Origin: an uncultured delta proteobacterium
Lineage (GTDB): Bacteria > Desulfobacterota > Desulfobacteria > Desulfobacterales > JAFDCJ01
DNA: 64,000 bases
Reading direction: 5' to 3'
Assembly (NCBI GenBank): GCA_963769935.1
Contig: CAVYNY010000013.1
Coordinates: forward strand, 416,001 to 480,000
Part shown: piece after piece, positions 18,559 through 35,211 of the stretch
How positions within the stretch are numbered: position 1 is the first letter of the stretch
Layout of the letters: every line of letters starts with the position of its first letter
Program-made: the position numbers and the translations under genes
Notes under the pieces: model-generated
Seen by the model: only the letters and a program-made list of their open reading frames with translations
The model's database searches: none
What the model was told of the DNA's origin: nothing

Positions 18559-19677
18559 ATGAAAGGCAAACCCGTCATACCGCCGGTGCATCTGACCGCG
18601 ACGTTCAAATTCGACAAATCCGATGACCTGATCGATGTGGTGCAAAACCGCAGCGGCTACCTGTATTCCAGGTGGGACAATCCTTCGGTGGTTGAAGTCG
18701 AAAATGTGTTGGCCGCCATGGAGGGCTACGATAAAGCCCTGGGATTCGGTTCAGGCATGGCGGCTATTACAACCGCAATATTCGCTCATCTCCAAGCCGA
18801 AAGCCGCATCATCGCCACACGGGAAATATACGGCGGCACCTTTGAACTGCTGGATAATATTTTGCCGAAATTCAATATTGATGCGGTATTTGTTAACAGC
18901 TGGGAGACCCGGCAGATGCTGGATGAAATTGAAAGAGGCGTTTCCATTCTGTACCTGGAAAGTCCCACGAATCCCCTGTTGAGGGTGGTGGATATCAAAC
19001 CGCTGGCCGAGGCGGCCCATAAAAAAGGTGCGGTCGTGATGCTGGATGCCACATTTGCTTCTCCGGTCAACCTACATCCTGCTGACCTTGGAGTGGACAT
19101 TGTTATCCACAGCGCGACCAAGTATCTGGGCGGGCACCATGACATTACCGCCGGTTTTGTCTGCTGCAACCAGCGCCACTTTGATCAGGTCTGGACCTAT
19201 CGCAAGATTATGGGCGGCATCATGGATCCCATGAGCGCTTTTTTAGCCTTAAGGGGGATAAAAACTTTAGAACTGCGTGTTGGACGGCAGAACGAAAGCG
19301 CCATAAAGATAGCCGCTTATCTCGATGAACACCCAAAAATCAAATCCGTTTACTACCCGGGCTTACCCTCCCATCCCGATCATGCGATCGCCCGCAGGCA
19401 AATGAGTGGATTCGGTGGCATGCTTAGTTTTGAAATCAACGGCGATTTTGATATTACCAAGCAATTCATGGATGCGCTTAAACTGATCAAACTGGCAACC
19501 AGCCTTGGCGGAGTATCCAGTCTCGCCAATCAACCCATTACCAATACCCATGCCGCCCTGAGTCCGGAAAACCGCGCCAAAGCCGGCATCAGTGAAAGCC
19601 TGGTGCGGCTGTCGGTCGGCGTTGAAAATGTGGATCTGTTGATGGAGGATCTGGGACAGGCGCTGGAAAGGGTTTAG
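18559..19677 (+). CDS. PLP-dependent trans-sulfuration enzyme (cystathionine gamma-synthase/methionine gamma-lyase family)
   Basis: YSRWDNP, SGMAAI, ESPTNP, HSATKYLGGH, RLSVG. Confidence 0.9.
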   Translation: MKGKPVIPPVHLTATFKFDKSDDLIDVVQNRSGYLYSRWDNPSVVEVENVLAAMEGYDKALGFGSGMAAITTAIFAHLQAESRIIATREIYGGTFELLDNILPKFNIDAVFVNSWETRQMLDEIERGVSILYLESPTNPLLRVVDIKPLAEAAHKKGAVVMLDATFASPVNLHPADLGVDIVIHSATKYLGGHHDITAGFVCCNQRHFDQVWTYRKIMGGIMDPMSAFLALRGIKTLELRVGRQNESAIKIAAYLDEHPKIKSVYYPGLPSHPDHAIARRQMSGFGGMLSFEINGDFDITKQFMDALKLIKLATSLGGVSSLANQPITNTHAALSPENRAKAGISESLVRLSVGVENVDLLMEDLGQALERV

Positions 19678-19813
19678 GGTTCAGTTTGTTTTTCTTCTCC
19701 TGCGTTGTTGACATCTACTCAGTTCGTTACTAAGTTCTTGAAAGTTCAGCTGATTCCGAACCAATTCCCATTGAGATAAATTCCTTTTCCAAATTGCAAA
19801 GGGGGATAACGCC

Positions 19814-20647
19814 GTGAAGAAGTGGATATTGATCGGCTTGAGTGCCATTGTCGTCATCCTGATAGTGGTCGTGGTTGTGGGCCTCTCAAAGCTCGGTCCA
19901 ATTGTCAAATTGGCAGTCAATACATATGGACCCCAAATTACAGGCACTGAGCTCAAGGTGGGTGATGTAGGTATTTCTTTGTTTTCGGGGGAAGCCAAGC
20001 TCAAAAATTTTTTTCTAGGCAATCCGAAAGGCTTCAAATCCCCGAGCGCCATGAAAATCGGCTCGATCGATGTGGAGGTGGATAAGGGTTCACTGACAAA
20101 AGACCCGATTGTTATCCAAAAAATCGAAGTGATCGGACCGGAGATCACATACGAGAAAAGGGGCAAAACAGATAATTTCCAGGCCCTTTTAGCCAACGTG
20201 CAAAAAGAATTGTCTCGGGGAGAATCAGCCAAAAAGGAGCCCGGAAAGGAAGGGCCTGGAAAACAGCTGATTATCAACGATCTGATTATAAAACAAGGCA
20301 AGGTTCATCTGGCCGTGGAAATGCCCGGCGGCATGTTGAGCGACAAGCAAATCAGCGCCGATCTTCCCGATATTCATCTCAAAGACATCGGCAAGGACAA
20401 AGGCGGTTCTTCTCCGGCAGAAGTAGCAAAGGAGATTTTTCAAACGCTGTATGCCAAAATTACAGCGCCGAATGTGATGGGGGCTTTAGATGATCAGCTC
20501 AAAAAACTGGGAGGCACTGTCACGCAGGCGGCTGGCGGGGTTGTTCAAGAGGGCCTCAAAGGGGCGACCGATGTTGTTAAGGGCGCCGGCAAAGAATCGG
20601 GCGGCGTAACTGACAAGGTCAAAGGTTTGTTCAACAAAAAGGAATAA
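19814..20647 (+). CDS. AsmA/DUF748-like membrane-anchored protein
   Basis: N-terminal TM anchor; GNPKGF motif; beta-rich body. Confidence 0.65.
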   Translation: MKKWILIGLSAIVVILIVVVVVGLSKLGPIVKLAVNTYGPQITGTELKVGDVGISLFSGEAKLKNFFLGNPKGFKSPSAMKIGSIDVEVDKGSLTKDPIVIQKIEVIGPEITYEKRGKTDNFQALLANVQKELSRGESAKKEPGKEGPGKQLIINDLIIKQGKVHLAVEMPGGMLSDKQISADLPDIHLKDIGKDKGGSSPAEVAKEIFQTLYAKITAPNVMGALDDQLKKLGGTVTQAAGGVVQEGLKGATDVVKGAGKESGGVTDKVKGLFNKKE

Positions 20648-20724
20648 AAACGCGAAAGTCCAATTTTCCCAGAATGGGAGTTCATATCATTTTATTCTGT
20701 CAAATCAAAGGCGAGGCGGGTCGT

Positions 20725-21444
20725 CTAATCTTCCCGCGCCGGAAACAGCAGATACCTCAGCCAGTGTATAAATGAATTCTCGCGCAAAAGCGCTTTGTCC
20801 GTCTGATCGAGCCCCCGAAACAGCCGGTCCGGTTCTGCAAAAAAGTGGGCCCGGGTTGTAAAGGATTCATTGGCATCCAGCTGCTTCACAATCCTGGCTG
20901 GATTGCCGGCCGCGACACAGTTGGCCGGGATGCTGTCCACCACCACGGCCCCGGCCCCGACGATACTGTTTTCACCAATGGTGACCCCCTTGCAGACGAT
21001 AGCGCTGTCACCAACCCAGACATTGCTTTCAATCTTTATGGGTGCGGTTTTCCCAAGGGATATGCGATTGTAAATATCATGCCAATCCGAGTCGGTAATG
21101 TATACATTGCTGGCGAGCATGCAATTATCACCAATTAGGATTTCGTGGGCTGAACCGATCCTCACCCCCGGGCAAATCAGGCAGTAATTCCCGATTCGAA
21201 TACACCCCTTGCCCGGTTGCTCCGACCAGATTGCCAGCCTGACCATTTTATCGGATGCGGCCACCACATTGACGTAATCTCCCAGTTCGATGGGCGCACC
21301 AAAAATTTCCACATGCCAGGGGCGCATAAACATAAAGCCTGCGCCTAAAGATTCCAGCTGGGGACGCAGAAAGTGGTTAACGTAGAATTCCTGAAACTTC
21401 AGGTAGGCTTTCTTGATAAAGTATGGGCGGTGGTCTCTGCGCAA
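20725..21444 (-). CDS. hexapeptide-repeat acyltransferase
   Basis: IGDNCMLA, ITDSDWH, VWVG..KGVTIGENSIVGAG, AGNPAR. Confidence 0.88.
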   Translation of the reverse strand: MRRDHRPYFIKKAYLKFQEFYVNHFLRPQLESLGAGFMFMRPWHVEIFGAPIELGDYVNVVAASDKMVRLAIWSEQPGKGCIRIGNYCLICPGVRIGSAHEILIGDNCMLASNVYITDSDWHDIYNRISLGKTAPIKIESNVWVGDSAIVCKGVTIGENSIVGAGAVVVDSIPANCVAAGNPARIVKQLDANESFTTRAHFFAEPDRLFRGLDQTDKALLRENSFIHWLRYLLFPARED

Positions 21445-21505
21445 AAAAAGTCCTCATCGAGTGCAGACCGTCGATGGTTGTGGATAGTGCTCAATGGATA
21501 CTAAT

Positions 21506-22546
21506 TTAATACCCAAAGCCCTTCCAGAATTCATGGCTGAACAGTTGCGCGGCCGGTGTCAGGTTATTAAGGGCATCAACTGCCATGAGAGCCACGGCGT
21601 TGGTCCAGGTAATTTTATCCTCGGGCCATATAATAATGTCGGGACAGGTAAAGCCGCACCAGTATGAGCCGTCCTCATACTTTCGGTCCGCAATCCAGCT
21701 GAATACGATTTGGGCCAGCTTGAAATTTCCCATGGCCGCCAAGGCAATAACCAGCTCCGACGTTTCGGCAATGGTCACCCACGGCTCATCGGAAACGCAC
21801 AGGACGCCACGCTCTTCGATGACATATTTTTTCCAGTACTTATCGATCCGCTTCTGGGCATCACCGCCGGTCAATACCCCGGCCAGAATCGGATAAAACC
21901 AGTACATTGAAAAGCGGGACTTGGTCATGTTAAACAGATGGGGCTTATGCCGGATGGCATCTCCCAGTTTAACCAGGGCCTGCTGCCATCCGGCAGCGGT
22001 GCGGCCCAGTATTTTCGCCAGGGAGAGAGCACATTTCAAACTCATATAAATGGAGCTTGAACCGGTCAAAAGCGCCGTGGGATCCACTTTGCCCTCCGGG
22101 CTGATCGCCCAGTGGATTTCACCATTGGGGGTTTGAAGACCGACGGCAAAATCGATGGCCGCGGCGACGGTGGGCCACATTGCTTTTACGAAAGAAACAT
22201 CCGCCGTAATAAGATAGTAGTGAAGCACCCCTACCGCGATGTACGAGGACAGGTTGGCGTCCCTGGTTTTGTCCTGGGGCCGTCCCTGCAGGTAAGCCGA
22301 ATACCAGCTTCCGTCTTCATGCTGCTTGCGGGCCAACCAATCATAGGCGCGCTGCGCCTGGGTCAGGTAGCCGCCGATACTGAGTCCCATGGCGGCTTCA
22401 ATGTGATCCCAGGGATCTGTTTTCTGGCCCTCGCACCATGGTATCTCGCCTGTTGTCAACTGGGTTTTTGCAATCAGGCTGCAAACTGCATCAATATCGA
22501 TTTGATAATCTGCCGCCGGTCTACTGATCGAAGTCTCAGGTTTCAT
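21506..22546 (-). CDS. prenyltransferase/squalene-oxidase repeat-like (alpha/alpha) barrel protein
   Basis: DPWDHIEAAM, QHEDGSW QW-like motif, WVTIAETSE, TWTNA. Confidence 0.7.
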   Translation of the reverse strand: MKPETSISRPAADYQIDIDAVCSLIAKTQLTTGEIPWCEGQKTDPWDHIEAAMGLSIGGYLTQAQRAYDWLARKQHEDGSWYSAYLQGRPQDKTRDANLSSYIAVGVLHYYLITADVSFVKAMWPTVAAAIDFAVGLQTPNGEIHWAISPEGKVDPTALLTGSSSIYMSLKCALSLAKILGRTAAGWQQALVKLGDAIRHKPHLFNMTKSRFSMYWFYPILAGVLTGGDAQKRIDKYWKKYVIEERGVLCVSDEPWVTIAETSELVIALAAMGNFKLAQIVFSWIADRKYEDGSYWCGFTCPDIIIWPEDKITWTNAVALMAVDALNNLTPAAQLFSHEFWKGFGY

Positions 22547-23316
22547 CCAACCCCACCTTTCATTTCTGTAAGCCGGATTTATTACAAAGGATCAGGATTA
22601 TAATCAAGAACTAAATGAGCGGCTCAAAGGTAAAGGTTTGCATTTGGTTAGAAAAAAAATTCTCGCAAAGCCGCGAAGGTAAATTGTTAAAATAATCCCG
22701 GCGTCTTTGCGTCTGGGCAAGTCCACCCGGGCGGATCGATACCGGCTTGTCCGGGTTGAGGATTTCGCCGGCGCAATTTTGCACCTTGACTTTGCCGACT
22801 TCTCTGTTTAATTTACCTCATACGCCCAAAAACATTTGAACACTTCAGACTGCGATTTGAAACTGCGCTAAAACCTGTTGCGGATAATTCTACCGGATCT
22901 TCACCGGATCAACTGATATTGGGCATTCATCTCTCCTGAGTGCAGGCCATGCAATTTTATCAATTATATATTTTGGCACTTATCCATTTCGATAACCCCT
23001 AACCCGAATCCGTCCCCAACGGACGCGTATCGGCGCCGAACTGCCTGGATATAGTTAACCGGCAGTGTTCATCTTTGCGAACTCCGCGGCCGGGTGATGG
23101 CCAAAATTTGCGTAGCCAACGATGAAAACGAGCAGTCTAAAAGAGCCGTCGCCGAGCCTCCGGCGGTAATGTTGGTGCCATTCAGGAGGCTTTTTGGAGA
23201 TAGTCGATCCACCTGTGACGTAAAAGTGGCAGCGTCGGTAAATCAACAACCGGCCGCTGCCGGGATTGGAACCAGAATTGTGTACCCTTTGTGAGGACAC
23301 AAGAAAGGAGGAAAAA

Positions 23317-23529
23317 ATGACTGACAGTGTATACAAAGTGATTCAACTAGTGGGCAGCAGCCCAAATTCCTGGGAAGAGGCTGCCAGGAATGCCGTAGAA
23401 AGAGCCGGCCAAACCCTCAGAGATCTGCGTGTGGCAGAGATTAACAAACTTGATATGAAGGTTGAAAACGGCAAGATTACCGCATTTCGCGCCAGGGTGA
23501 ACCTCTCATTTAAATACGGCGGCGAATAG
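23317..23529 (+). CDS. dodecin family flavin-binding protein
   Basis: AAGGAGG RBS; SVYKVIQLVGSS..SWEEAA..LRDLR..SFKY. Confidence 0.92.
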   Translation: MTDSVYKVIQLVGSSPNSWEEAARNAVERAGQTLRDLRVAEINKLDMKVENGKITAFRARVNLSFKYGGE

Positions 23530-23668
23530 ACCGCCAATGGTGTCACCCGGCTAAAAAACCGAGGATACCCCGGACCCCGGACATCAAAAATAATGTCTTA
23601 TCCAAACACCGACCGCAGCCGGCGGAAAAACCCCGGAGATGGGGTATCCCTGATTAAGGAGTTTACAA

Positions 23669-24130
23669 ATGCAGGTTGTAGCAAGACTCAAAGAGATGGG
23701 CGTCAAACTCCCGCAGGCGGTAAAACCGGTGGCCAACTACGTTCCGGCTGTTCGCAGCGGCAATCTGGTATTTCTATCCGGTCATGGTCCTTTCGATGAA
23801 GATGGTTCCTTGATCACCGGCAAGCTCGGTTCGGAATTGACAACGGAACAGGGTTATGAGGCCGCTCGGCGGGTCGCCATCGGGCTGCTGGGTTCATTGA
23901 AAGCCGAGATCGGTGATCTGGAAAGCGTTAAACGGGTGGTGAAACTGCTGGGACTTGTCAACTGCACGTCGGATTTTACCGATCAGCCCAAGGTCATCAA
24001 CGGCGCTTCCGATTTTTTAGTCGAGGTATTCGGCGCCAGGGGCAAGCATGCGCGCTCCGCCGTGGGGACAAATGCACTGCCGATGAACATAGCCGTTGAA
24101 ATTGAGATGATCGTCGAGATAGCGGGTTAA
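23669..24130 (+). CDS. RidA/YjgF family protein
   Basis: ANYVP, SGHGP, INGASD, HARSAVG, VEIE. Confidence 0.92.
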   Translation: MQVVARLKEMGVKLPQAVKPVANYVPAVRSGNLVFLSGHGPFDEDGSLITGKLGSELTTEQGYEAARRVAIGLLGSLKAEIGDLESVKRVVKLLGLVNCTSDFTDQPKVINGASDFLVEVFGARGKHARSAVGTNALPMNIAVEIEMIVEIAG

Positions 24131-24138
24131 GGGCTCAC

Positions 24139-24723
24139 TCAAAATCGATACTTGACGCCGACAGCCAGCGTGTTGGAACCGCCCCGGCCCCGCTCCTCGA
24201 CCAGGCCGAAAGCCCCGGAGCGATGGTGGATACGCAGCGAGGCCGCCCAACTGCTCTTGGGAGGGCCGAGGGTCAGTTCGCCAAACCAGTAAACCATAAA
24301 CTTCTTGGTTGAATTGTTCAGTTCGATTTCTTCCTCCGGTTCCGAGGCGGCATAAGACGGTCCGACACCGTAAGCGAGGCTGGTTGCCACATAATTTTCC
24401 CAGGGAAATCTGCTCCAGCGAATAGCTGCCGGAAGATTGAATTCCCAATTATGCTGGTCGCCGAACCATTTCCCCACCTGTCCCTCGATCTCGAAGGACA
24501 GCGCATCTCCATAAAAGCGTGCAAACGTCCAGGCAAGGGCGCCGACCACAACATAGGCATCGACAAAATCGGCCTGTCCGGTGAGGGTATCGCCGAAGTC
24601 ACTGTCGGTCATGCGTCCGGTATAAAGGGTAAGCGCAAAGTCCTGCCCCGCCAGGGATTCGTCGGCCACCGCCCATGAAGCGGCGACAAGCATAAAAACT
24701 GCAACAACACAATATTTGACCAC
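24139..24723 (-). CDS. putative outer-membrane beta-barrel (PagL/acyloxyacyl hydrolase-like)
   Basis: signal peptide, RIHHRSG motif, C-terminal KYRF barrel signal. Confidence 0.55.
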   Translation of the reverse strand: MVKYCVVAVFMLVAASWAVADESLAGQDFALTLYTGRMTDSDFGDTLTGQADFVDAYVVVGALAWTFARFYGDALSFEIEGQVGKWFGDQHNWEFNLPAAIRWSRFPWENYVATSLAYGVGPSYAASEPEEEIELNNSTKKFMVYWFGELTLGPPKSSWAASLRIHHRSGAFGLVEERGRGGSNTLAVGVKYRF

Positions 24724-24823
24724 ACCTTCACCCGCCTAAGTCAATTCCTGCTATAAAAAATTATGATTCTATGAACCTAAAAAAGGTAATCTTTGTGGGA
24801 ATATTCTAATTTCAATTTACTTC

Positions 24824-24906
24824 GGCGTGCTGGAGTACTGGAGTATTGGAGTAATGCTGAAGGTTTGATATCCTCCTTTTCAATACTCCAAAACTCCATC
24901 ACTCCA
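24824..24906. repeat. inverted pair of 8-bp tandem arrays (GGAGTANT / CAATACTC)
   Basis: GGAGTACT GGAGTATT GGAGTAAT ... CAATACTC CAAAACTC CATCACTC. Confidence 0.8.
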
Positions 24907-25468
24907 AGATCGAGACTTTCAAAACATTCTGATAAGATTCGATTACCTTATTATTGTTCATATTTCCGAAAAATTATTTGCCACCCTGTTTTCAAAGACA
25001 GCGCCGAGCATCTGGGGACCATGGCAGGGGCACCCTGACGGCATAAAGTGGGTAATATATCATAATGTCACGGAGTTTCAAACAAATTTCCCGCAAATGA
25101 ATTCAGGCTGTCTGAATACCATCCGGTCGTTCACTTTTGTAAATCTGGGGCTGCACCGCATGCATCGTCTCCCCAAATACTGTGTTTTATTACTCAAAAT
25201 GGATACTTTCCCCCATTGAATATGTTTTAAAGATATGTGATTAAATGCAGTCACTACCCAGTGGCAGCTCCCACTTGTGAAGTTCCAGCCGGAGTTCATG
25301 CAGAGTGGCTCAACTCTTTTTCTGATCCCTTTGGAAATATAACCCGTTTAACATATCTGTTTATCGTTTTGAGGTCGATAACTTCACCTGCAAAAAGACG
25401 GATGCAGAATAATGTGTTCGGACGTTTGCCCCTGAAACCAATCACCAAGCGCAAAGGAGGTTTGAATC

Positions 25469-27223
25469 ATGAAAGTCGCATTAATCGGTGCCGAGCTGGA
25501 GGAAAACATCGGCCTGCGTTACATGGCTTCCGCCCTGGAACGAAACGGCCATGAGGCCCTGATAATTCCTTTTAATTTCGACCGGGATAGACCCCAAACC
25601 GTTGAGAAGACTCTTGCGTTCGAACCGCATATCGTCGGATTGTCCATGGTTTTTACAAGCCGCGCACGGGAATTTTGTAAATTGGCAAACTCCCTGCGGG
25701 ATAAAGGCTGCCGGGGGCATATCATCGCGGGAGGGCATTTTGCATGTCTCAATGCCGGCCAACTTCTGCGGGACTTCACGGCGTTTGATTCCATCGCACT
25801 GGGCGAAGGCGAAGATATCATTTGTGCTTTAGCTGAAAACCTGAACGATCCGGGAAAAGTGCCGGGTATTTGTTTGCGCGGCCGCGACGGATCTTTGAAA
25901 ATAAATCCTTCGAAAGGCAATCCGGGCGACCTCGACGCATTGCCGTTTCCCAAGCGGACAACCTTTCACGATTATTTCGGCAAACCGATTGCGAGCATTC
26001 TAAGCAGCCGGGGCTGCTGGCGGGACTGCGCCTTCTGCAGCATCAATGCCTGGTACAAGCAGGGCGGTGGAAAAAAATTCAGAGTTCGAAGTGTGGCAAA
26101 CATCGTTGCCGAAATGAAGGAACTGTACTTTCAGCATGGTATCCGCATCTTTAACATGCAGGACGATAATTTCTTTCTACCCAACAAGACCCGGGCGCTG
26201 CGGCGCTTTGAAGACTTGCGTTCCGCGCTGCAGCGCGAAGGCGTGGAAGGCATTGCCATAGCGGTGAAAGCCCGACCCGACAGCATCACCTACGACGCGA
26301 TAAAGGTGCTGGATGATCTCGGATTGTTCCGCGTGTTTTTAGGCGTCGAGAATGCTTCCGAGCGCGCCTTAAAAAATCTCAACCGCAAATGCCGGGTCAA
26401 AGACATTCTGGAATCCTTGAAGATTCTCAACGATTTTGATGTGCATATCGCCTACAATCTTCTCCTGTTTGAACTGGATACCAACCTGGAAGATATACTG
26501 ATTAATTTACGGTTCATCGAACGGCACATCGACAATCCCTTCAACTTTTGCCGGGCCGAAGCGTATGCCGGAACCGGGCTGGAGCAAAAACTGCTGGCGC
26601 AGGGACGGCTGCTCGGCGATTACTTCGGCATCGATTATCGTTTAAAAGATCCCCGGGCGGAAGCCTTTCATCAAATCGCCAATTATGCCTTTTTCGACCG
26701 CAACTTCAGCGACAGCGGACTGCACTATTTTAATATGCAGGTCGACTTCTACTTTCAGCTCCTGAGACGCTTCCATCCTGAATTGCTTACCCAGGGTCTG
26801 CGTGGAACCGTACGCAACTTCATCAAGTACACAAATCTGGATACCTACGAGTGCCTGTGCCAAATATATGATTTCGCAGTAGCGGCCGATCCCGATGATC
26901 GGAGGCGCGTTCAGGAATTTTCACAGGATCTGCGCCAACGCGTAGACAGCCGAAGTTATGAGCTCCGCCTGCAGGGCGAACGCCTTTTAGAAAGATTGGA
27001 GGCCGTTTACCGTGATCGTGACAAAACCGACAAGCCGGCTGCATCTTCCTTCTCGCAGGTCGATCTTCCGCTTCTGCAGGGTCGTCCCGAACCTTATGCC
27101 GGTTTGGACGCTCTGACGCAATCGTCGAATACGGCGATGATGAGCGATATGGATTTATTTGGACTCGCTCCGCAACCCGTTCCCTATGATGTGTTTAAGC
27201 GTCAACTGTCTTCACACAGGTGA
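25469..27223 (+). CDS. B12-binding domain radical SAM enzyme with C-terminal extension
   Basis: AAGGAGG RBS; cobalamin-binding Rossmann motifs (GLS, AGGHFA, GEGE); SRGCWRDCAFC CxxxCxxC; DDNF; GVEN. Confidence 0.92.
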   Translation: MKVALIGAELEENIGLRYMASALERNGHEALIIPFNFDRDRPQTVEKTLAFEPHIVGLSMVFTSRAREFCKLANSLRDKGCRGHIIAGGHFACLNAGQLLRDFTAFDSIALGEGEDIICALAENLNDPGKVPGICLRGRDGSLKINPSKGNPGDLDALPFPKRTTFHDYFGKPIASILSSRGCWRDCAFCSINAWYKQGGGKKFRVRSVANIVAEMKELYFQHGIRIFNMQDDNFFLPNKTRALRRFEDLRSALQREGVEGIAIAVKARPDSITYDAIKVLDDLGLFRVFLGVENASERALKNLNRKCRVKDILESLKILNDFDVHIAYNLLLFELDTNLEDILINLRFIERHIDNPFNFCRAEAYAGTGLEQKLLAQGRLLGDYFGIDYRLKDPRAEAFHQIANYAFFDRNFSDSGLHYFNMQVDFYFQLLRRFHPELLTQGLRGTVRNFIKYTNLDTYECLCQIYDFAVAADPDDRRRVQEFSQDLRQRVDSRSYELRLQGERLLERLEAVYRDRDKTDKPAASSFSQVDLPLLQGRPEPYAGLDALTQSSNTAMMSDMDLFGLAPQPVPYDVFKRQLSSHR

Positions 27224-27345
27224 TTGGAAATTTTGAGGTGGCTTCATCCGATCCGGTTCATCCATACGAACGAACAACCGGATAGTCTGTTCGCAATATT
27301 CATGTTCAATAAAAGTTTAACCTTATCAACAAAGGAGGCGTCAAG

Positions 27346-28121
27346 ATGGACAAAAAAAAGCTGCCATAATTCGCGATTGGGTAGAACCGGCCCATCCCAT
27401 GGTGGTACGGTTTTATGATGATTTGCTGGCCATTTACCGGCGTATTCGCGATAAATTCCAGCAAAGAATAGATGAGACCTTTGATGCAACTTCGCGTACG
27501 ATCGGTTTCCTGGTTACCACAACGTTGCCGCTGACGCTTGAAATCGATAAGAAAGGAAAAGTAAAACAAATCGAACTAGGGGCCGAACATCTTAAAAATA
27601 CTCTTTTTGACAAGAACTTTTCCCCGATACTCAGAGCCATTGCCGGTGAGGACCCTGAATTTGATCCCAGCATCTCAGCCGGAACCTATAATCCCTATTT
27701 AATCTGGTTTGACGCGCTGAAGTTAAAGCTGCGCACCGACTGGGTCGAACCGGCGCACTTCCGCGACTATTTTCGAATTCGGGAACGCTTCGCCGGCATA
27801 TTCAGATTTGACTGGGTGGAGCCGGCCCACATCGCCCTGGGTGGTTCAGCCCTGGCGGCGGTGGATCCGGATGTCATGGAGCCAGCTCATTTGGGACCGA
27901 CTCCGAATCCATGGCGTGACAGGGTTCTCATCGCTGTCATCGATGAAATCTATCCGGAGCTTGGTTTGGTGGAAAGGATCACCCGACTCAAAGATCTGCT
28001 GCGCACGCGCGTGCGGCCGGACGTCATGGAACCTGCCCATTTCCGGGATATCGGGCGTCAGTTGCCCCGCGAAGCATTAGCCGAGATTGAAGCCGTGCTG
28101 CGCCGCTTCGGCTACAAGTAA
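27346..28121 (+). CDS. EPAH-repeat protein, putative substrate of the radical SAM enzyme (-1 frameshift at 27352-27360 joins ATG 27346 to ORF 27399-28121)
   Basis: AAGGAGG then ATG GAC A8 G; adding one A gives MDKKKAAIIRDWVEPAHPMVV, in frame with the listed ORF; five D(WV/VM)EPAH motifs. Confidence 0.8.
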
Positions 28122-28329
28122 TCAAGCCTGACATTAAGTTCAAGGTAAACTAAGTAAAGTGTTGCAGCAACACAGGTGGGACTTTCTCAACGATTTACAG
28201 AAAATTCCCACATATCGCGGCCGCCGCCGGGATGCCAGTCCCGGCGACAGTCAGCGTTTGAAGCAATTAGACCGCTGTAACCGATGCCATCGGATGGCGC
28301 AACCGGCCCACGGCGTTTTTTTTGCCCCG

Positions 28330-28470
28330 GGGCCGGAAACTTTTTTGAATCTTATCAAACGCATGTGCGAAAATATATTGCCCAGGCCGCGCCTGTTAAT
28401 TTTGAATTACCCGCATAATCCGACGGCCGAACTGGCTACGGTGGATTATTTTACAGAAATTGTCGCGGCG
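28330..28470 (+). pseudogene. internal fragment of a class I/II PLP aminotransferase
   Basis: PRPRLLILNYPHNPT..VDYFTEIV motif only; no N-terminus, no PLP lysine region. Confidence 0.65.
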
Positions 28471-30008
28471 CCTGGTCCCGGCTGAGCATTCCACCAGCCG
28501 CCTCCCAGGGCGGCAATCAGGGTCGCACTATCCTGATAGCGCTGGGCTTTCGACGTTAAGTATCCGATCCGGGCCTGCTGGTATTGCAGATCGGCGATCA
28601 GGACCTGCACGTAATCGGCTTTGCCCGCCTTGTAATTTTCCTGAACCAGCTTCAAGGACTGCTGCGAACTTGCCAGGGCCTGCGACTGGGCGTTTAAGGT
28701 TTGGGCGTCGTGCTCCAGCGCCCTGAGGGTATCGGCCACCTGAGCGAATGCGGCCAGCACCGTCTGACGATAGTCCGCCAGGGCGGCATCGTAGGCGGCC
28801 AGCGCGGCCTTGCGCTTGTACCACAGGGTCCCGCCTTGAAAGAGGGGCGCCGTGAGACCCACCCCCAGATTCCAGAAGTTGGAGATGGGATTGAAGAGCA
28901 GGCTGCTGTTGATAGTGGACTGACCGTAAGCGCCCGTCAAATCGATGCTCGGAAACATGTTGGCCGTTGCCACGCCGATGGCGGCACTGGCGACATGCAG
29001 CTGGGCCTCGGCCGCCAGGATGTCCGGGCGCCGGCGCACCAGGTCGGAAGGCAGACTGACCGGCAGATGCTCCGGCAGCGTGATATCCGCAAACTTGACC
29101 TCGGGCGGCGTCCAGGCCGACGGTATCTGCCCGACCAGGGTCGCCAGGAGGTGCCGGGTCTGGTCCAGAGACTGCTGCAAGGGCGGCAGGGTGGCCACGG
29201 TGGACGCCAGCCGGGCACGCATGCTCAATACGTCCTGCGAGGCGATAATTCCGGCTTTCACCTGGGCCTCCATAATGTCGAGCTGATGTTGCTGATCGTC
29301 GATGATCTCCTGGGTGGCCTCGATCTGCGCCCGGTAGGACGCTTCGGCAATGACCGTATTGATGACCCGGCCCAGCAGGGTCAGATAGGTGGCCCGGGCC
29401 TCGTAGTCCTGATAGTCCGACTGCGCCTTCAGCCCTTCGACTGTCCGGCGGCTGCGGCCGAAGAAATCGAAGTTATAGCTGACCGCGGCCGAGGCCGAAT
29501 AGACGGTAAATAGACTGCTGCCGAAGGAGCCGCCGAAGCTGGCCGAGTTGAACTTTTGCCGGGTGATATCGGATTTGCCCTCGATCTGGGGGAAAAACAC
29601 CCCATAGCCGGCCTGCAGATTGGCCTGGCTTTCGCGCAGCCGCGCCTGGGCGCCCTGCAGGCTTTGGTTGTTGGCCACGGCGAGCTGGATAACCCGGTCC
29701 AGTTTGTCGGAGTGGAACAGATGCCACCATTCACGGGAGATCTTGGCGCCCCAATCGAACTGCTGCTGCTTGCCGTCCGCTGCAATTGTCCTGGAAGGCG
29801 CTTGGCCCTGGGTGTAGCCTGCGACTTCGGGCGCCGCAGGCGGCACGAAATCCGGACCGAGGGCACACCCCCAGATTCCCATGCCGATCAGCACAAGACC
29901 GGCGGTCAAAATTAATTTCGGCCGTCGCCCGGCCTTCCTTCCCGGCGCCGCAGGCTGCCGAAGATCCGGCCGGTGGTTGGCCCGCGGTTGGATATGGTTG
30001 CGCGACAT
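28446..30008 (-). CDS. RND efflux outer-membrane lipoprotein (NodT/OprM family)
   Basis: lipobox WGC..GPDF, LPSDLVRRRPDI, ALGGGW; start overlaps the RND stop (TGATG). Confidence 0.9.
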   Translation of the reverse strand: MSRNHIQPRANHRPDLRQPAAPGRKAGRRPKLILTAGLVLIGMGIWGCALGPDFVPPAAPEVAGYTQGQAPSRTIAADGKQQQFDWGAKISREWWHLFHSDKLDRVIQLAVANNQSLQGAQARLRESQANLQAGYGVFFPQIEGKSDITRQKFNSASFGGSFGSSLFTVYSASAAVSYNFDFFGRSRRTVEGLKAQSDYQDYEARATYLTLLGRVINTVIAEASYRAQIEATQEIIDDQQHQLDIMEAQVKAGIIASQDVLSMRARLASTVATLPPLQQSLDQTRHLLATLVGQIPSAWTPPEVKFADITLPEHLPVSLPSDLVRRRPDILAAEAQLHVASAAIGVATANMFPSIDLTGAYGQSTINSSLLFNPISNFWNLGVGLTAPLFQGGTLWYKRKAALAAYDAALADYRQTVLAAFAQVADTLRALEHDAQTLNAQSQALASSQQSLKLVQENYKAGKADYVQVLIADLQYQQARIGYLTSKAQRYQDSATLIAALGGGWWNAQPGPGAATISVK

Positions 30009-33000
30009 CACAGCCCACCCCCAGGTGCGGTTGCCTGCCGGGCCGAATCTTCCGCGGGCGGAATGGTTTTCAAGCCCAGGCGCTCGGCCAGACGGGTGAT
30101 AAGAATGTAAAATACCGGCGTCACCAGCAATGTAAATAGGGTGCTGAAAACCAGACCGCCGACCACGGCCCAACCCAGCGGCTGGCGGCTCTGGGAGCCC
30201 GGTCCGGAGGCCAGGGCCAGGGGCAGGCCGCCCATAATCATCGCCAGGGAGGTCATCAGGATCGGCCGGAAACGAATCTTGGCGGCCTTAACCGCAGCCC
30301 GACCAATTCCTCGCCCCCGGCCCTCAGGCGATTGGCGTAGTCCACCATCAGGATGCCGTTTTTGGTGACCAATCCGATCAGCAGGATAATTCCGATCTCG
30401 CTGTAAAGATTGATATTGTTGCCGGTCGCAAAAATTGCCAGCAGGGCCCCGGTGAGCGCGAGCGGCACGGAGAACATAATCGTAAGGGGATGGACCCAGC
30501 TTTCAAACTGGGCGGCCAATACCAGATAGATGAAGACCAGCGATACGGCAAATGTGACATAAAGCGACGCCGACGTCTCCCGGTAGTCCCGGCTCTGCCC
30601 CGTCAGGGCGGTGCTGTAACCGGCGGGCAGGATTTTTTGGGCATTGGCCTGCATGTCGTCCAGGGCCTTGCTGAGGGGCAGCGACGACTGCAGGCTGGCA
30701 CTGATGGTAAACGAACGCTGCAGGTTGTAGTGAAAGATGGTGTCCGGTCCGTAGGTGTTGGTCAGCGATACCAGATAAGACAGCGGCACCGGTTTTCCCG
30801 CGCGGTCGCGCACGTATATGTCGTTGATCTGTCCCGGTTGGGCCCGGAATTTGGGTTCGAGTTGAACCAGAACCTCGTAGCTTTTGTTGTTCATGATAAA
30901 ATCGGAGACATGCGAGCCGCCCAGACCCACCTCCAATGCCAGGGCGACATCGGCAACGGAAATGCCGAGATCCGAGGAGCGCTCCCGGTGAAAATCCACA
31001 TTCAGCTGGGGCGTCTCGGTGGTCAGGTCCGATTGGACATTGATCATGCCCTTGGTGCGCCGGGCCTGGTCGAGCAGCTGCCGGTTGAGTTTGGCCAGCT
31101 CTTTGAGGCTCGGCCCCAGAACCACGAACTGAACTTCCTGACTCGTGGCCTGCTCTCCGAGGGAGGGCGGATTGATGGGAAAAGCCAGCACGCCGGGAAT
31201 CTGCATTAAGCGCGGAAAGAGCCGGCGCACGATCTCCATCTGGCTCATTTTGCGCTGGTCGAAGGGCTTGAGCCGCGGAAACGCGAGCCCCAGCCGGGGT
31301 GACGCCGGCCCTCCGATGGAGATGCCGATGGCCGCGAAATAGTTCTGCACCGCCGGGATATCGCTGATGTCCTTTTCGATGTCCTGCAGGTAATGCCGGG
31401 TGTACCAGAGGTTTGATCCCTGGGGTGCCTTTACGATGACCAGAAAGTAGCCCTGATCTTCCACCGGCACAAAGGTTTTGGGCAGAATAAAGTATAATCC
31501 CGCCGCAGCCCCGATGTTCAGGAGCATAAAGCAGCCGACAATCTTGCGGTGGCGGACGGCCCATTCGGCCAGCTGCCCGTAACGACCTTGGAGCCATTGA
31601 AAAAAACGCTCGCTCAAACTGAAGAGGCCCCGGCGCGGTTCGGAGAGACGCAGGATGCGGGCGCAGAGCATCGGCGTCAGGGTGAGCGCCACCAATCCCG
31701 AAAGCCCGACGGCCATGGCGACGCTCAACGCAAACTCGCTGAACAGCCGGCCGATATCTCCCCGCATGAAGGCCAGCGGAATGAAAATGGCGATCAGGGT
31801 CGCCGTGGTGGCCAACACCGGAAAACCGATTTCACGGGCGCCCCTGACGGCGGCCGTTTGCTGTTCCTCCCCCAGCTCCTGGCGGCGGTAAATGTTTTCA
31901 AGCATGATGATGGCGTCATCGATCACCAGTCCGATGGCCAGCACCAGTGAAAACAGCGTCAGAACGTTGATGGAAAAACCGGCGATCCACATGCCGGCAA
32001 AGGCGCCGATAATGGAGACCGGGATGGCCAGCACCGGGATGATGGTGGCCCGCAGCGTCCGCAAAAAGATCAGCACCACCAGGGAGACAAGCAAGAAAGT
32101 GATGAAAAGGGTTTTGGTCACCTCGTGAATCGAGTCCCGGATGTAATCGGTTACGTCCATCGCCACCTTGATTGCCACGCCCTTGGGCAGAATTCCCCGG
32201 ATGCCGGACAGGGCCTGGTGCACTTCATTGGAAATGTCGATGGCATTGGATTTGGTCAGGGGGACGACGCCCACGCCGACGACCGGCTTGCCGTTGAAGC
32301 TTGCAATCGTGTCGTAGCTTTCGGCTCCCAGCTGCACCCAGCCGATGTCCCGGATCCGCACCGGAGCTCCGTTCACCTTGCGAATGACCAGGTCGGCGTA
32401 GCCTTTGGGATCCTTCATTTGGCCGTTGGCCACGACGTTGAAAAAGAGGGCGTCGGATTTGATCTGGCCGGCCGGAAGCTGAACGTTGTTGTCGGCCAGT
32501 GTACTGACGACATCGGCCACCGTTATGCCGTAGCCGGTCATTTTGGCGGGATTGAGCCAGACGCGCATGGCCCAGGTATAATCTCCGCCGATGATGACAT
32601 TGCCTACGCCGGGCAAAATCTCCACCCGCCGCTTGACAATCAGATCGGCTATTTGGCTGAGCTGCTCAAGGGAGTAGTTTTCCCCTTGGAGCACGAGCCA
32701 GATGATCGGTTGCGCTGTAGAGCTTACTTTCGAGACCACCGGCCGCTCCACGTTGGGAGAGTTGGGCAGGTTGTTGATGGCCTTGCTCACGGCGTTGGTT
32801 ACGTCCTGGACCGCGGCGTCGACGTTGCGGTTGGATTTGAACTCGATATTGATGGCGCTCACGCCGAAAGAACTCTGCGAGGAGATATCGCGAATGTCGT
32901 CGATCGAATTGAGGCTCTCTTCCAGGGGGTTGGTTACGGTAGCTTCGACGGTTTCCGGACTGGCCCCGGTGTATACCGTGGTGACGGAGACCACCGGCCG

Positions 33001-33123
33001 GGTGATATCCGGATACTGCCGGACCGACAGGGCCAGATAGGCGGCGATGCCCACCAGCAAAATCAACAGGCTGAGCACGGATGCGAGCACCGGCCGTTTG
33101 ATGGAAATGTCCGACAGCATCAT
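30008..33123 (-). CDS. RND efflux permease (AcrB/MdtB-like), single frameshift near 30300
   Basis: IKRPV, GLVIDDAI, KNGIL; RFRPILMTS recovered in the adjacent frame. Confidence 0.9.
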
Positions 33124-34430
33124 GAGGCGCTGTTCTCCTGTGGATTGGTGAGGTCGAGCCGCTGGTTGTGGATCGGCTGGTAGGCCGATACGATCAGCTT
33201 CGCCCCGGGGTATAGCTTCTGCACGCCGGCGGTGATCACCCGGTCCGTGGGCTTGAGCCCGGATATGATCTCGACCCAGTTGTTTTGGAAAACGCCCACT
33301 TCCACGCTGCGCTGCTCGGCTTTGTCTTCCGGTGCCACAACCCACACGTACCGGGCGTCGCCCTCCGGAACAATCGCCTGGGCCGGCACGAACAGGGTAT
33401 CGGGTTTTGTTCCCACAATCAGCCGGACATGCGCAAACATACCGGGTTTGAGCAGCAGCTTCGGATTCGGGACGGTGGCCTGGACGTGGATGTTGCGTGA
33501 ATCGGCGTCCAGGGCCGGGTCGATGGTGGTCACCGCCCCTTCAAATTCTCCGGTGAGGCCCGGCACGGCAAAATTCGCTTTTTGCCCCGGCATGATGCGG
33601 CCGATGGTCTGTTGGGGAAGTTCAAAATCCAGAAAAAGAGGATCCATCTGTCTGATGCTGACAATCGCATCGCCGGCCTTCAGATAGGCACCCAGACTCA
33701 CCTGCCGCATGCCGAGCGCGCCTGTGAAAGGCGCCCGGATGCTCGTGTATTGGAGATTGACCTGGGCTTGCGCCAGTTGGGCCTCGGCTTGCTGCACGGC
33801 CGTTTCATCGCTTTGCAGCTGCTGCTCGGAAACCCCCCCGGTTTTAACCACCTGCCGGTCGCGTTCATAAACGCCGCGGGCATTGGTCAGCGTTGCTTCA
33901 GCCGCCGCCAGCGCGGCTTTCTGAATGGAATCGTCCAGCCGGGCGAGAACCGTCCCCCGCTGCCGGACCTGCCCCTGCGCGATATTGAGCAACACGGCTC
34001 GGCCGTCAATTTGAGGGGCGACAACGGTTTCCTGAGGACTGGACAAGCTGCCGACGGCGGGAATCTCCTGGTTCAATTCGGCAACTTTAACCGGGGCGGC
34101 TTCCACATGGACGGGCATCGCAGCGGCACCCATCGATTCTTCCCCGCTCCGGCAGGCTTGTATGAGGAGCAGACCCAGGATCAGGCCGACATAAAGCGCC
34201 GCACCACGCAAACCGTGGCGGACCCTTTCACCCGCTCCGGGCACGGAAAGGGTCCGGCAATAGGGGAGCGCCTGGCGGCGCCTTCTGATGGAATAGATTA
34301 TCCGCGTGATGTCTGGCATACCTTCAAATTCTCGCTTCAGCGCGACGAGGACCCGGGCGGCTGGAAAGCTAAACTCACCCAACGGTTCATTCGCCGCCGT
34401 CTTCACCCTGCCGGCCAATTTAGGGTTCAA
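33120..34430 (-). CDS. RND periplasmic adaptor (MFP); true start may be downstream
   Basis: IRAPFTG, LKPGMFA, VPAQAI, GLKPTDRVITAG. Confidence 0.88.
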   Translation of the reverse strand: MNPKLAGRVKTAANEPLGEFSFPAARVLVALKREFEGMPDITRIIYSIRRRRQALPYCRTLSVPGAGERVRHGLRGAALYVGLILGLLLIQACRSGEESMGAAAMPVHVEAAPVKVAELNQEIPAVGSLSSPQETVVAPQIDGRAVLLNIAQGQVRQRGTVLARLDDSIQKAALAAAEATLTNARGVYERDRQVVKTGGVSEQQLQSDETAVQQAEAQLAQAQVNLQYTSIRAPFTGALGMRQVSLGAYLKAGDAIVSIRQMDPLFLDFELPQQTIGRIMPGQKANFAVPGLTGEFEGAVTTIDPALDADSRNIHVQATVPNPKLLLKPGMFAHVRLIVGTKPDTLFVPAQAIVPEGDARYVWVVAPEDKAEQRSVEVGVFQNNWVEIISGLKPTDRVITAGVQKLYPGAKLIVSAYQPIHNQRLDLTNPQENSAS

Positions 34431-34605
34431 GGCTTTGTGATTTAGAAATTAACGCCGCGGCCTGCGGTACGCTATAAGTATCTGTCTGATTATGATGTAG
34501 GAAAGGTCAGGAAGTTGGTGTCGGTAGTTGTCCTACGCGGAACGATTGGGATGCGCACCGCTGACTTCATCTACTTGGATCTTGAGGGGAGGATTTTAAT
34601 TTCAA

Positions 34606-35211
34606 TTAAATTCTCAAGCTTTCTTTCAATCGCGGGTCAATCCGGGCCAGGCCTACTCCCATTCCCGTAAAGTTCGTTTGTATATCAAACTCGCAGCCCC
34701 AGATGAATGTCTTGGCATTTACGATGACGGCTACAAGTTTGGCACCCTTCAGATTGGCTTTCCACAGATCGGCACCGTTTAGATTGGCCCTGGTAAGATC
34801 GGCACCTTCCAGATCGGCCCATATAAGCTCCGCCTCTTTCATATTGGCTTCCAAAAGCTCGGCACCTTTGAGATTGGCTTTCCATAGTTCAGCGCCTTCC
34901 AGATTGACCTGAAAGAGATCGGCGCCTTCCAGATCAGCATCCAAAAGATTAGCGCCTTTGAGATTCGCGCACCGGAGATTGGCTCCCCTTAAATTTGCTT
35001 TCCAAAGATCAGCGTCTGCCAGATCGACTTTCGAAAGATCAGCGCCTTGCAGGTTGGCGCCGCCGAGTTCGGCGCCTTCCAATAAAACTGGTGCCTCCTT
35101 AATATTTTTACGCCATTCATTCCACGCATTCAGATCCCCTCTTTCTGAGCACCGGGTGAGTAATTCATAGTGGGTTCTGTTAAACTGCCTTGGGTTTACT
35201 TCATTGATCAT
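34606..35211 (-). CDS. pentapeptide repeat protein
   Basis: long run of A(D/N/E)LxG/xK pentapeptides after a WNEWR motif. Confidence 0.92.
   Translation of the reverse strand: MINEVNPRQFNRTHYELLTRCSERGDLNAWNEWRKNIKEAPVLLEGAELGGANLQGADLSKVDLADADLWKANLRGANLRCANLKGANLLDADLEGADLFQVNLEGAELWKANLKGAELLEANMKEAELIWADLEGADLTRANLNGADLWKANLKGAKLVAVIVNAKTFIWGCEFDIQTNFTGMGVGLARIDPRLKESLRI

Follow-up and report, generated by a model that had tools for sequence, protein, structure and literature searches.

A B12-binding radical SAM enzyme and its adjacent EPAH-repeat protein: a candidate two-gene system for C-methylation of an intact protein

The window, i.e., the whole 64-kb stretch of DNA analyzed here, carries a gene for a B12-binding radical SAM enzyme followed on the same strand by a gene for a protein with five D-x-x-EPAH motifs (Table 1). 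The neighboring YjgF, dodecin and RND efflux genes do not recur at any related locus, an Rfam scan of positions 19000-35000 returned no match, and promoter and terminator counts in the window sequence were at chance level. Contigs of two metatranscriptomes (both from one study) bridge the junction between the two genes; all 30 of 30 bins of the 11-kb stretch were covered, so that DNA carry-over is possible and these contigs are only a weak hint of co-transcription. Upstream of the dodecin gene, ~209 bases (22988-23198) are missing from related strains in two RNA runs.

Table 1. Features of the enzyme and EPAH-repeat genes (positions are those of the window).
Feature	Position	Strand	Remarks
B12-binding radical SAM enzyme gene	25469..27223	+	584 aa; AGGAGG at 25455-25460
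Cobalamin-binding Rossmann domain (enzyme residues 12-121)	25502..25831	+	G57-x-S59-x-V61-x-T63, GG 88-89, GE 112-113
CxxxCxxC cluster motif (C183/C187/C190)	26015..26038	+	invariant in 79/79 orthologues
Helical C-terminal region of enzyme (residues 391-470)	26639..26878	+	conserved; helical in model; candidate substrate-binding surface
EPAH-repeat protein gene (258 aa in the organism)	27346..28121	+	AGGAGG at 27333-27338
A-run, one base short in assembly (artefactual frameshift)	27352..27359	+	extra base in public runs
Motif 1, DWVEPAH	27375..27395	+	sequence match
N-terminal folded domain of partner, predicted TolA-III/TonB-C-terminal-like	27399..27713	+	model pLDDT ~80-96
Motif 2, DWVEPAH	27738..27758	+	sequence match
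Motif 3, DWVEPAH (lineage-specific extra copy)	27810..27830	+	column filled in 6% of alignment A3
Motif 4, DVMEPAH	27870..27890	+	sequence match
Conserved helical hairpin of partner (IDE-x-YPEL)	27909..28010	+	retained even in motif-less family members
Motif 5, DVMEPAH	28020..28040	+	sequence match

As assembled, the EPAH gene is interrupted: its ATG leads to a stop after 7 codons, and the open frame begins only at 27399 and encodes 240 aa. However, contigs of 4/4 public runs and of one further run carry an extra base in the A-run, and 258 aa is the length of 9 of the 12 proteins in the 90% cluster of the EPAH protein. The frameshift is therefore an assembly error and the protein is 258 aa long in the organism, which rules out a genuine or programmed frameshift; the length of about 258 aa given in the original prediction holds for the organism but not for the window as assembled. 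A second assembly error is a one-base gap that splits the AcrB-type efflux gene (30256-30300) and is filled by three public runs. With two such one-base errors, further interrupted genes in the assembly may likewise be artefactual.

The enzyme scored 54.7 bits against PF02310 (cut-off 32.1) and 66.9 bits against PF04055 (cut-off 29.5), the G-x-S, GG and GE cobalamin motifs are conserved among its orthologues, and its modeled fold matches those of OxsB, TsrM, MgmA, CysS and TokK (Foldseek e-values 1e-20 to 5e-17). By its predicted B12 domain, CxxxCxxC domain and overall fold, it classifies as a class B (cobalamin-binding) radical SAM enzyme. HpnR, ApyD and BchE were the top NCBIfam matches, and many orthologues are labeled BchE by JGI, but among the named equivalogs (BchE, HpnR, ApyD, TIGR03975, MgmA TIGR04014 and TIGR04190) the best score was 91 bits and all were far under cut-off.

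Cofactor positions were taken from the available portions of PMC9204698 and PMC12931638 and mapped by motif, not by structure superposition. On this mapping, all 79 of 79 orthologues have V, I or M at the position of TsrM-Arg69/OxsB-Asn186 (V61 in the window enzyme), an invariant Ile (I192, two residues after the Cys motif) takes the place of TokK-Trp215, and a D-D-N (N234) corresponds to D-A-N in TokK and to Glu in TsrM and OxsB. These residues look closer to the radical methylase TokK than to TsrM or OxsB, and would favor radical methylation. The invariant Thr (T63) at the TokK-Trp76 position counts against this, since the lower cofactor face is then not fully TokK-like; according to the portion of PMC9204698 consulted, TokK tolerates changes at this position. 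A non-radical methylase of the TsrM type was rejected, as V61 and N234 replace, on the same partial sources, the Arg and the cluster-binding Glu, and the TIGR04428 score is 26.8 vs. 500. Mean column conservation of residues 391-470 is 0.83, vs. 0.82 for the barrel, whereas residues 521-584 are variable and poorly modeled, which points to the former as the likely docking surface for the partner and is consistent with the substrate-binding role originally suggested for the C-terminal extension.

The five motifs lie at the positions originally given, with residues kept and synonymous codons differing between copies, and all are in one frame. A six-frame search of the 8.0-Mb genome gave 76 EPAH matches, with no D-x-x-EPAH cluster other than this one, and in 100,000 shuffled versions of the protein EPAH occurred at most once. 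A total of 215 relatives were retrieved at an e-value of 0.001 or better (183 clusters at 50% identity), all unnamed or labeled "hypothetical"; the protein had no family match in Pfam or NCBIfam and no match among PDB sequences, and its Atlas matches were all <0.9.

Motif counts were taken over 311 distinct proteins of at least 190 aa (shorter proteins were left out); alignments A2 and A3 omit rows L048 and L061. Copies per protein range from 0 to 14, mostly 4 or 5, with all synonymous codons in use, and four motif sites occupy fixed alignment positions across the family, motif 3 of the window being a local extra. Trp is found at motif position -2 in 46% of 1403 motifs, F, W or Y at +4 in ~60% (Pro at site 1), and Arg is common at -5/-4 and +5. 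EPAH occurs 1225 times vs. twice for DPAH. When site 2 was scored at a fixed offset from the conserved helix, without anchoring on the motif, the expected residues were again predominant (E 286, P 288, A 241 and H 276 of 298 proteins). The motif His is swapped for Gln within the family, and 4/311 members lack an EP-x-H/Q/N motif. The spacers, described as unrelated in the original prediction, are indeed unrelated to one another but conserved among homologues; they are thus not free linkers, and form a conserved scaffold.

The scaffold is kept in motif-less members (L058:2235-2813, P0296, P0330 and P0338), and the archaeal L058 partner, with a single DPVN-like site, still lies behind an intact enzyme gene. 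Other Pro motifs (27885-27908 in the window) occur among the 311 proteins, namely P-x-P-[DENQ]-P-W in 37 and LNPQPLPP in 13, and are possibly further modification sites. Archaeal-type long forms (L050:7956-9347, P0334, P0268) repeat a unit made of the motif and a short amphipathic helix, and in P0004 and P0329 part of the EPAH protein is joined to unrelated sequence, probably through chimeric assembly.

In the structural model of the EPAH protein (mean pLDDT 74.7), the N-terminal domain is well folded, a helical hairpin is also present, and motifs 1, 3, 4 and 5 fall in segments of low confidence. In a comparison with known structures (VIA), the top five rows for partner residues 14-118 were all TolA-III (best Z 6.1, rmsd 3.0, 84/90 residues aligned; the tool calls a match clear at Z 8), TonB C-terminal domains were also among the matches, and the top Foldseek rows were TonB/TolA at a non-significant e-value of 0.16 or worse. 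The N-terminal domain thus probably resembles the TolA/TonB C-terminal fold in the model, a resemblance rather than membership because the membrane anchor is missing: no signal or membrane segment was detected in the partners (hydropathy >1.6 in 1/139). TolA/TonB proteins combine an N-terminal membrane anchor with TolQR/ExbBD motor genes, neither of which is found at EPAH loci, and the partner further differs from TolA-III/TonB C-terminal domains in being present in archaea and in its lack of a Pfam match. Of the five-core substrate protein first proposed, the repeated motifs are borne out, but they are set in a folded family protein rather than in a string of cores.

To evaluate how closely the two genes are associated, loci were collected with the partner protein alone as query, which yielded 58 genome loci, spread over 13 named phyla (three archaeal), and 80 metagenome loci. 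The enzyme gene is adjacent at 55/58 genome loci (orthologues 55-72% identical; 54/58 by the window's query, the last one with more queries) and 66/80 metagenome loci; the pattern that would have spoken against the original prediction, homologues mostly lacking an adjacent enzyme, was not found. Among the genome exceptions, L057 is cut off at the edge of its contig, and the enzyme lies at the edge of a different contig in that genome. L019 and L055 have no adjacent enzyme, no orthologue was found in their draft genomes, and the partner gene is broken in both (an internal stop in L019, ~45 N-terminal residues missing in L055). The metagenome exceptions were too short upstream (13/80) or had a transposase there (1/80). 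Gene order is reversed at one locus, and a hydrolase gene lies between the two genes at another.

Trees built from 79 pairs share 40/76 splits; 32 of the 38 well-supported partner-tree splits are also in the enzyme tree and 0/28 strong splits conflict, with hosts of different phyla intermixed. No third gene family occurs near the pair in more than 13/58 genome loci (that one being regulators). The absence of an adjacent protease or RRE gene, initially noted for the window, fits the wider set of 138 loci, where no conserved protease, transporter or RRE gene was found, and the enzyme itself gave no PqqD/RRE match. The cassette was detected in 0/22 congeneric genomes, no enzyme orthologue was detected outside the window's genome in samples of 400, 400 and 40 genomes (a sampling of little power), and the enzyme had no match in plasmids. 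Such rarity (0/22 congeneric genomes, two samples of 400) suggests that the cassette is transferred or lost as a block. Overall, these comparisons support the enzyme and the EPAH protein as a dedicated, co-inherited two-gene unit.

The nearest enzymes outside the family are 28-42% identical, have the E/Q-E/D-N-L loop in common with it, and group with the EPAH enzymes against more distant ones in a quick tree with long branches, in which the grouping of an own-genome paralogue with the family was rejected as a long-branch artefact. An adjacent protein with a D-P-x-[P/V/M] motif was present at 7/9 of these sister loci vs. 0/6 for the more distant enzymes, against a background of 0.4-0.9% per ORF and with a pattern defined after the sequences had been seen and three loci that are close kin; of the remaining 2/9, one has a D-E-V-P-P and one a fused tail. 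The sister systems (L170:1019-4681 from G750, L173, L147, L140, L172, L174 and L158) encode partner proteins of 74-271 aa with D-P-x-P/V/M motifs, a C-terminal helix and no family names, a layout echoed by the repeat unit of the archaeal-type EPAH proteins. At the L170 locus there are two DPAP cores, together with a RiPP methyltransferase that scores above the TIGR03975 cut-off, and the L170 enzyme has 1582 relatives at an e-value of 1e-100 or better.

Comparison with these sister motifs, which have Pro, Val or Met where EPAH has His, also narrows the candidate targets. The original prediction named Glu, Pro, His or Trp: Glu and Pro are favored, but Trp (in 46% of motifs) and His (Gln in some family members; Pro, Val or Met in the sisters) are unlikely. 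As judged from the aligned motifs, the acid-Pro pair, the element common to EPAH and the sister D-P-x motifs, is the likely target. If the modification is a methylation, Glu would be the leading candidate at somewhat less than even odds, ranked just above Pro since the acid is retained at sites where Pro is not; Pro would be a reasonable second guess, and Ala or His a rather doubtful one. Beta-methylation of Pro has a precedent in clavusporin (PMC10849626, from the part of that paper available). PbsC was discarded as a precedent for proline methylation, as the pbs papers, in the portions consulted, concern ortho-tyrosine macrocycles, and PMC12186529, likewise in part, other enzymes.

Several known systems share features with the pair. 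MgmA/QCMT and Mmp10 are also B12 radical SAM enzymes, and place C-methyl groups on Gln and Arg of methyl-coenzyme M reductase, a protein that stays intact, as the EPAH protein probably does; MgmA (PDB 9ccb) is the best sequence match of the enzyme among solved structures (e-value 1.7e-11), and QCMT also works on short motifs and on Glu/Asp variants (PMC13469106, available portion). However, the enzyme scores only 51 against TIGR04014 (MgmA; cut-off 360), and MgmA and Mmp10 act on one site of an essential enzyme, whereas the EPAH system would involve a dedicated accessory protein with 3-14 sites. In MpcB/MpcC (clavusporin), PoyB/PoyC-type (TIGR03975) and ApyD systems, a class B enzyme likewise lies beside a ribosomal substrate (putative in the EPAH pair), and MpcB/MpcC-type systems introduce several methylations including beta-methylation of Pro (PMC10849626, in part). 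Yet the MpcB, PoyC and ApyD clusters include a short precursor, a protease and a transporter, in contrast to the 258-aa folded partner without processing genes found here, and the enzyme stays well below the corresponding cut-offs (72.6 vs. 281.85 for TIGR03975, 81 vs. 750 for ApyD). TokK, CysS, TsrM, OxsB and BipD have the overall fold in common with the enzyme at 15-18% identity, but act on small molecules or short peptides. Compared with RiPP gene clusters in general, the pair has a putative substrate gene fixed beside a modifying enzyme (55/58 genome loci), but its EPAH protein, with 258 aa and a confidently folded domain, differs from a short precursor with leader and cleavable core. By analogy, the pair could be seen as the intact-protein mode of MgmA/Mmp10 crossed with a multi-core RiPP precursor, and a member of neither. 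In the literature searched, in which subscription journals were sparse and supplements set aside, neither a radical SAM enzyme linked to EPAH, DPAP, NPQPLPP or PDPW motifs nor a description of the pair was found, and the accessible parts of PMC10288494 and PMC13060819 gave no useful EPAH or B12 match; the pair thus appears to be undescribed, as first suspected.

Our main reading, to which we give a probability of roughly 0.55, is that the enzyme C-methylates multiple EPAH sites, likely at Glu or Pro, and that the partner stays intact, folded and cytoplasmic. The conserved scaffold (TolA-like domain and helical hairpin) would dock on the C-terminal helices of the enzyme in a leader-like manner, and the flexible motif segments would enter the active site one by one. 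In established class B chemistry, a 5'-deoxyadenosyl radical abstracts hydrogen and the methyl group comes from methylcobalamin, at a cost of two SAM per site. Here, the hydrogen would be abstracted from, and the methyl group given to, an unactivated carbon of the E-P-A-H site, and two SAM would be spent on each. Methylation might then make several Glu/His sites more rigid in what would be an accessory metal-binding or stress protein, a guess that is the weakest step of the proposal. Against the methylase reading stand the 4/311 motif-less members and L058, which retains the enzyme with one DPVN-like site.

The motifs could alternatively belong to a multi-core RiPP, in which the enzyme modifies them, an unlinked housekeeping protease cuts out short peptides, and the scaffold serves as a folded leader. 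The copy number, which varies and reaches 14 through tandem expansion, the Arg frequent on both sides of the motif, the loci that adjoin other radical SAM and small-protein cassettes, and the sister system with a TIGR03975 methyltransferase all fit such a RiPP; nonetheless, we consider it improbable, as conserved protease and transporter genes are absent from the 138 loci, four motif sites are fixed in a conserved fold with conserved flanks, and the flanks differ between motifs, so that freed peptides would be heterogeneous. Next in probability, and also improbable, the EPAH protein may be an adaptor or activator, docked on the enzyme through its motifs and capturing with its TolA-like domain a third protein, the one modified. 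The co-inheritance of the pair also fits this role, motif-poor members exist, TolA/TonB C-terminal domains bind peptides of other proteins (as far as the titles of the matching structures tell), and MpcB with MpcC is, in the available part of PMC10849626, a B12 radical SAM enzyme that requires a partner protein. Still, a docking motif has no need of expansion to 14 copies, the cassette occurs in 13 phyla and two domains without a common third gene, and the sister enzymes adjoin motif proteins of 74-145 aa that resemble substrates.

A different chemistry on the motifs, either an aromatic cross-link (Trp, His, Phe) or an epimerization, is a shade less probable again. BipD, a B12 radical SAM enzyme, forms a biaryl bond (PMC12707348) and QCMT epimerizes Pro in peptides (PMC13469106), both on the portions of these papers available, and the frequent aromatic residue at +4 and the Thr in place of TokK Trp76 are in keeping with it; but Trp is at -2 in only 46% of motifs, +4 is Pro at site 1, His is missing from the sister motifs, and the remaining cofactor positions are methylase-like. 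Finally, the NCBIfam matches and JGI labels mentioned above would suggest a small-molecule enzyme (database label "Mg-protoporphyrin cyclase") with an incidental EPAH neighbor, which we regard as largely refuted, and by far the least probable of these options, since the scores are far under cut-off (BchE 80.6 vs. 481), the two genes are almost always adjacent, their trees match, and the partner has decayed at loci without the enzyme.

Returning to methylation of EPAH sites in an intact partner, a broader and distinctly more tentative proposal is that of a mobile two-gene module that introduces C-methyl-glutamate (or methyl-proline) throughout a cytoplasmic protein with many such sites and a repurposed TolA/TonB fold, and that represents one branch of a large unrecognized B12 radical SAM family that reads acid-Pro motifs (EPAH, DPAP, DPIP, DPLP) in bacteria and archaea. 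B12 radical SAM enzymes number more than 220,000 (PMC12931638, available portion) and their substrates are mostly unknown; here, the neighboring gene supplies a candidate that is directly testable. If methylation of the motifs is true, it would amount to a side-chain C-methylation for which four residues serve as the tag, of use in protein engineering, provide a way into the sister family of at least 1582 proteins, and blur the boundary between RiPPs and intact-protein modification.

Additional cassettes were observed near the pair at some loci. Directly downstream of it, a second cassette (L023:8986-10483, L024/L025:8826-10301, L113, L117 and L123-L125) consists of a 107-129 aa PWW-x-VAYLII protein and a SPASM radical SAM enzyme that reaches none of the cut-offs. 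At L066 (9193-10682), the pair is followed by a 111-aa D-E-D-R-C-G-T protein and then a radical SAM enzyme. At Geobacter-like and Brocadia-like loci (L017:8838-13300, L010, L012, L074:8711-11107 and L116), an unannotated 800-aa Cys/Trp-rich protein comes after the pair; in L017, from the cultured Geobacter hydrogenophilus, it is accompanied by a SPASM radical SAM enzyme whose N-terminal extension is long.
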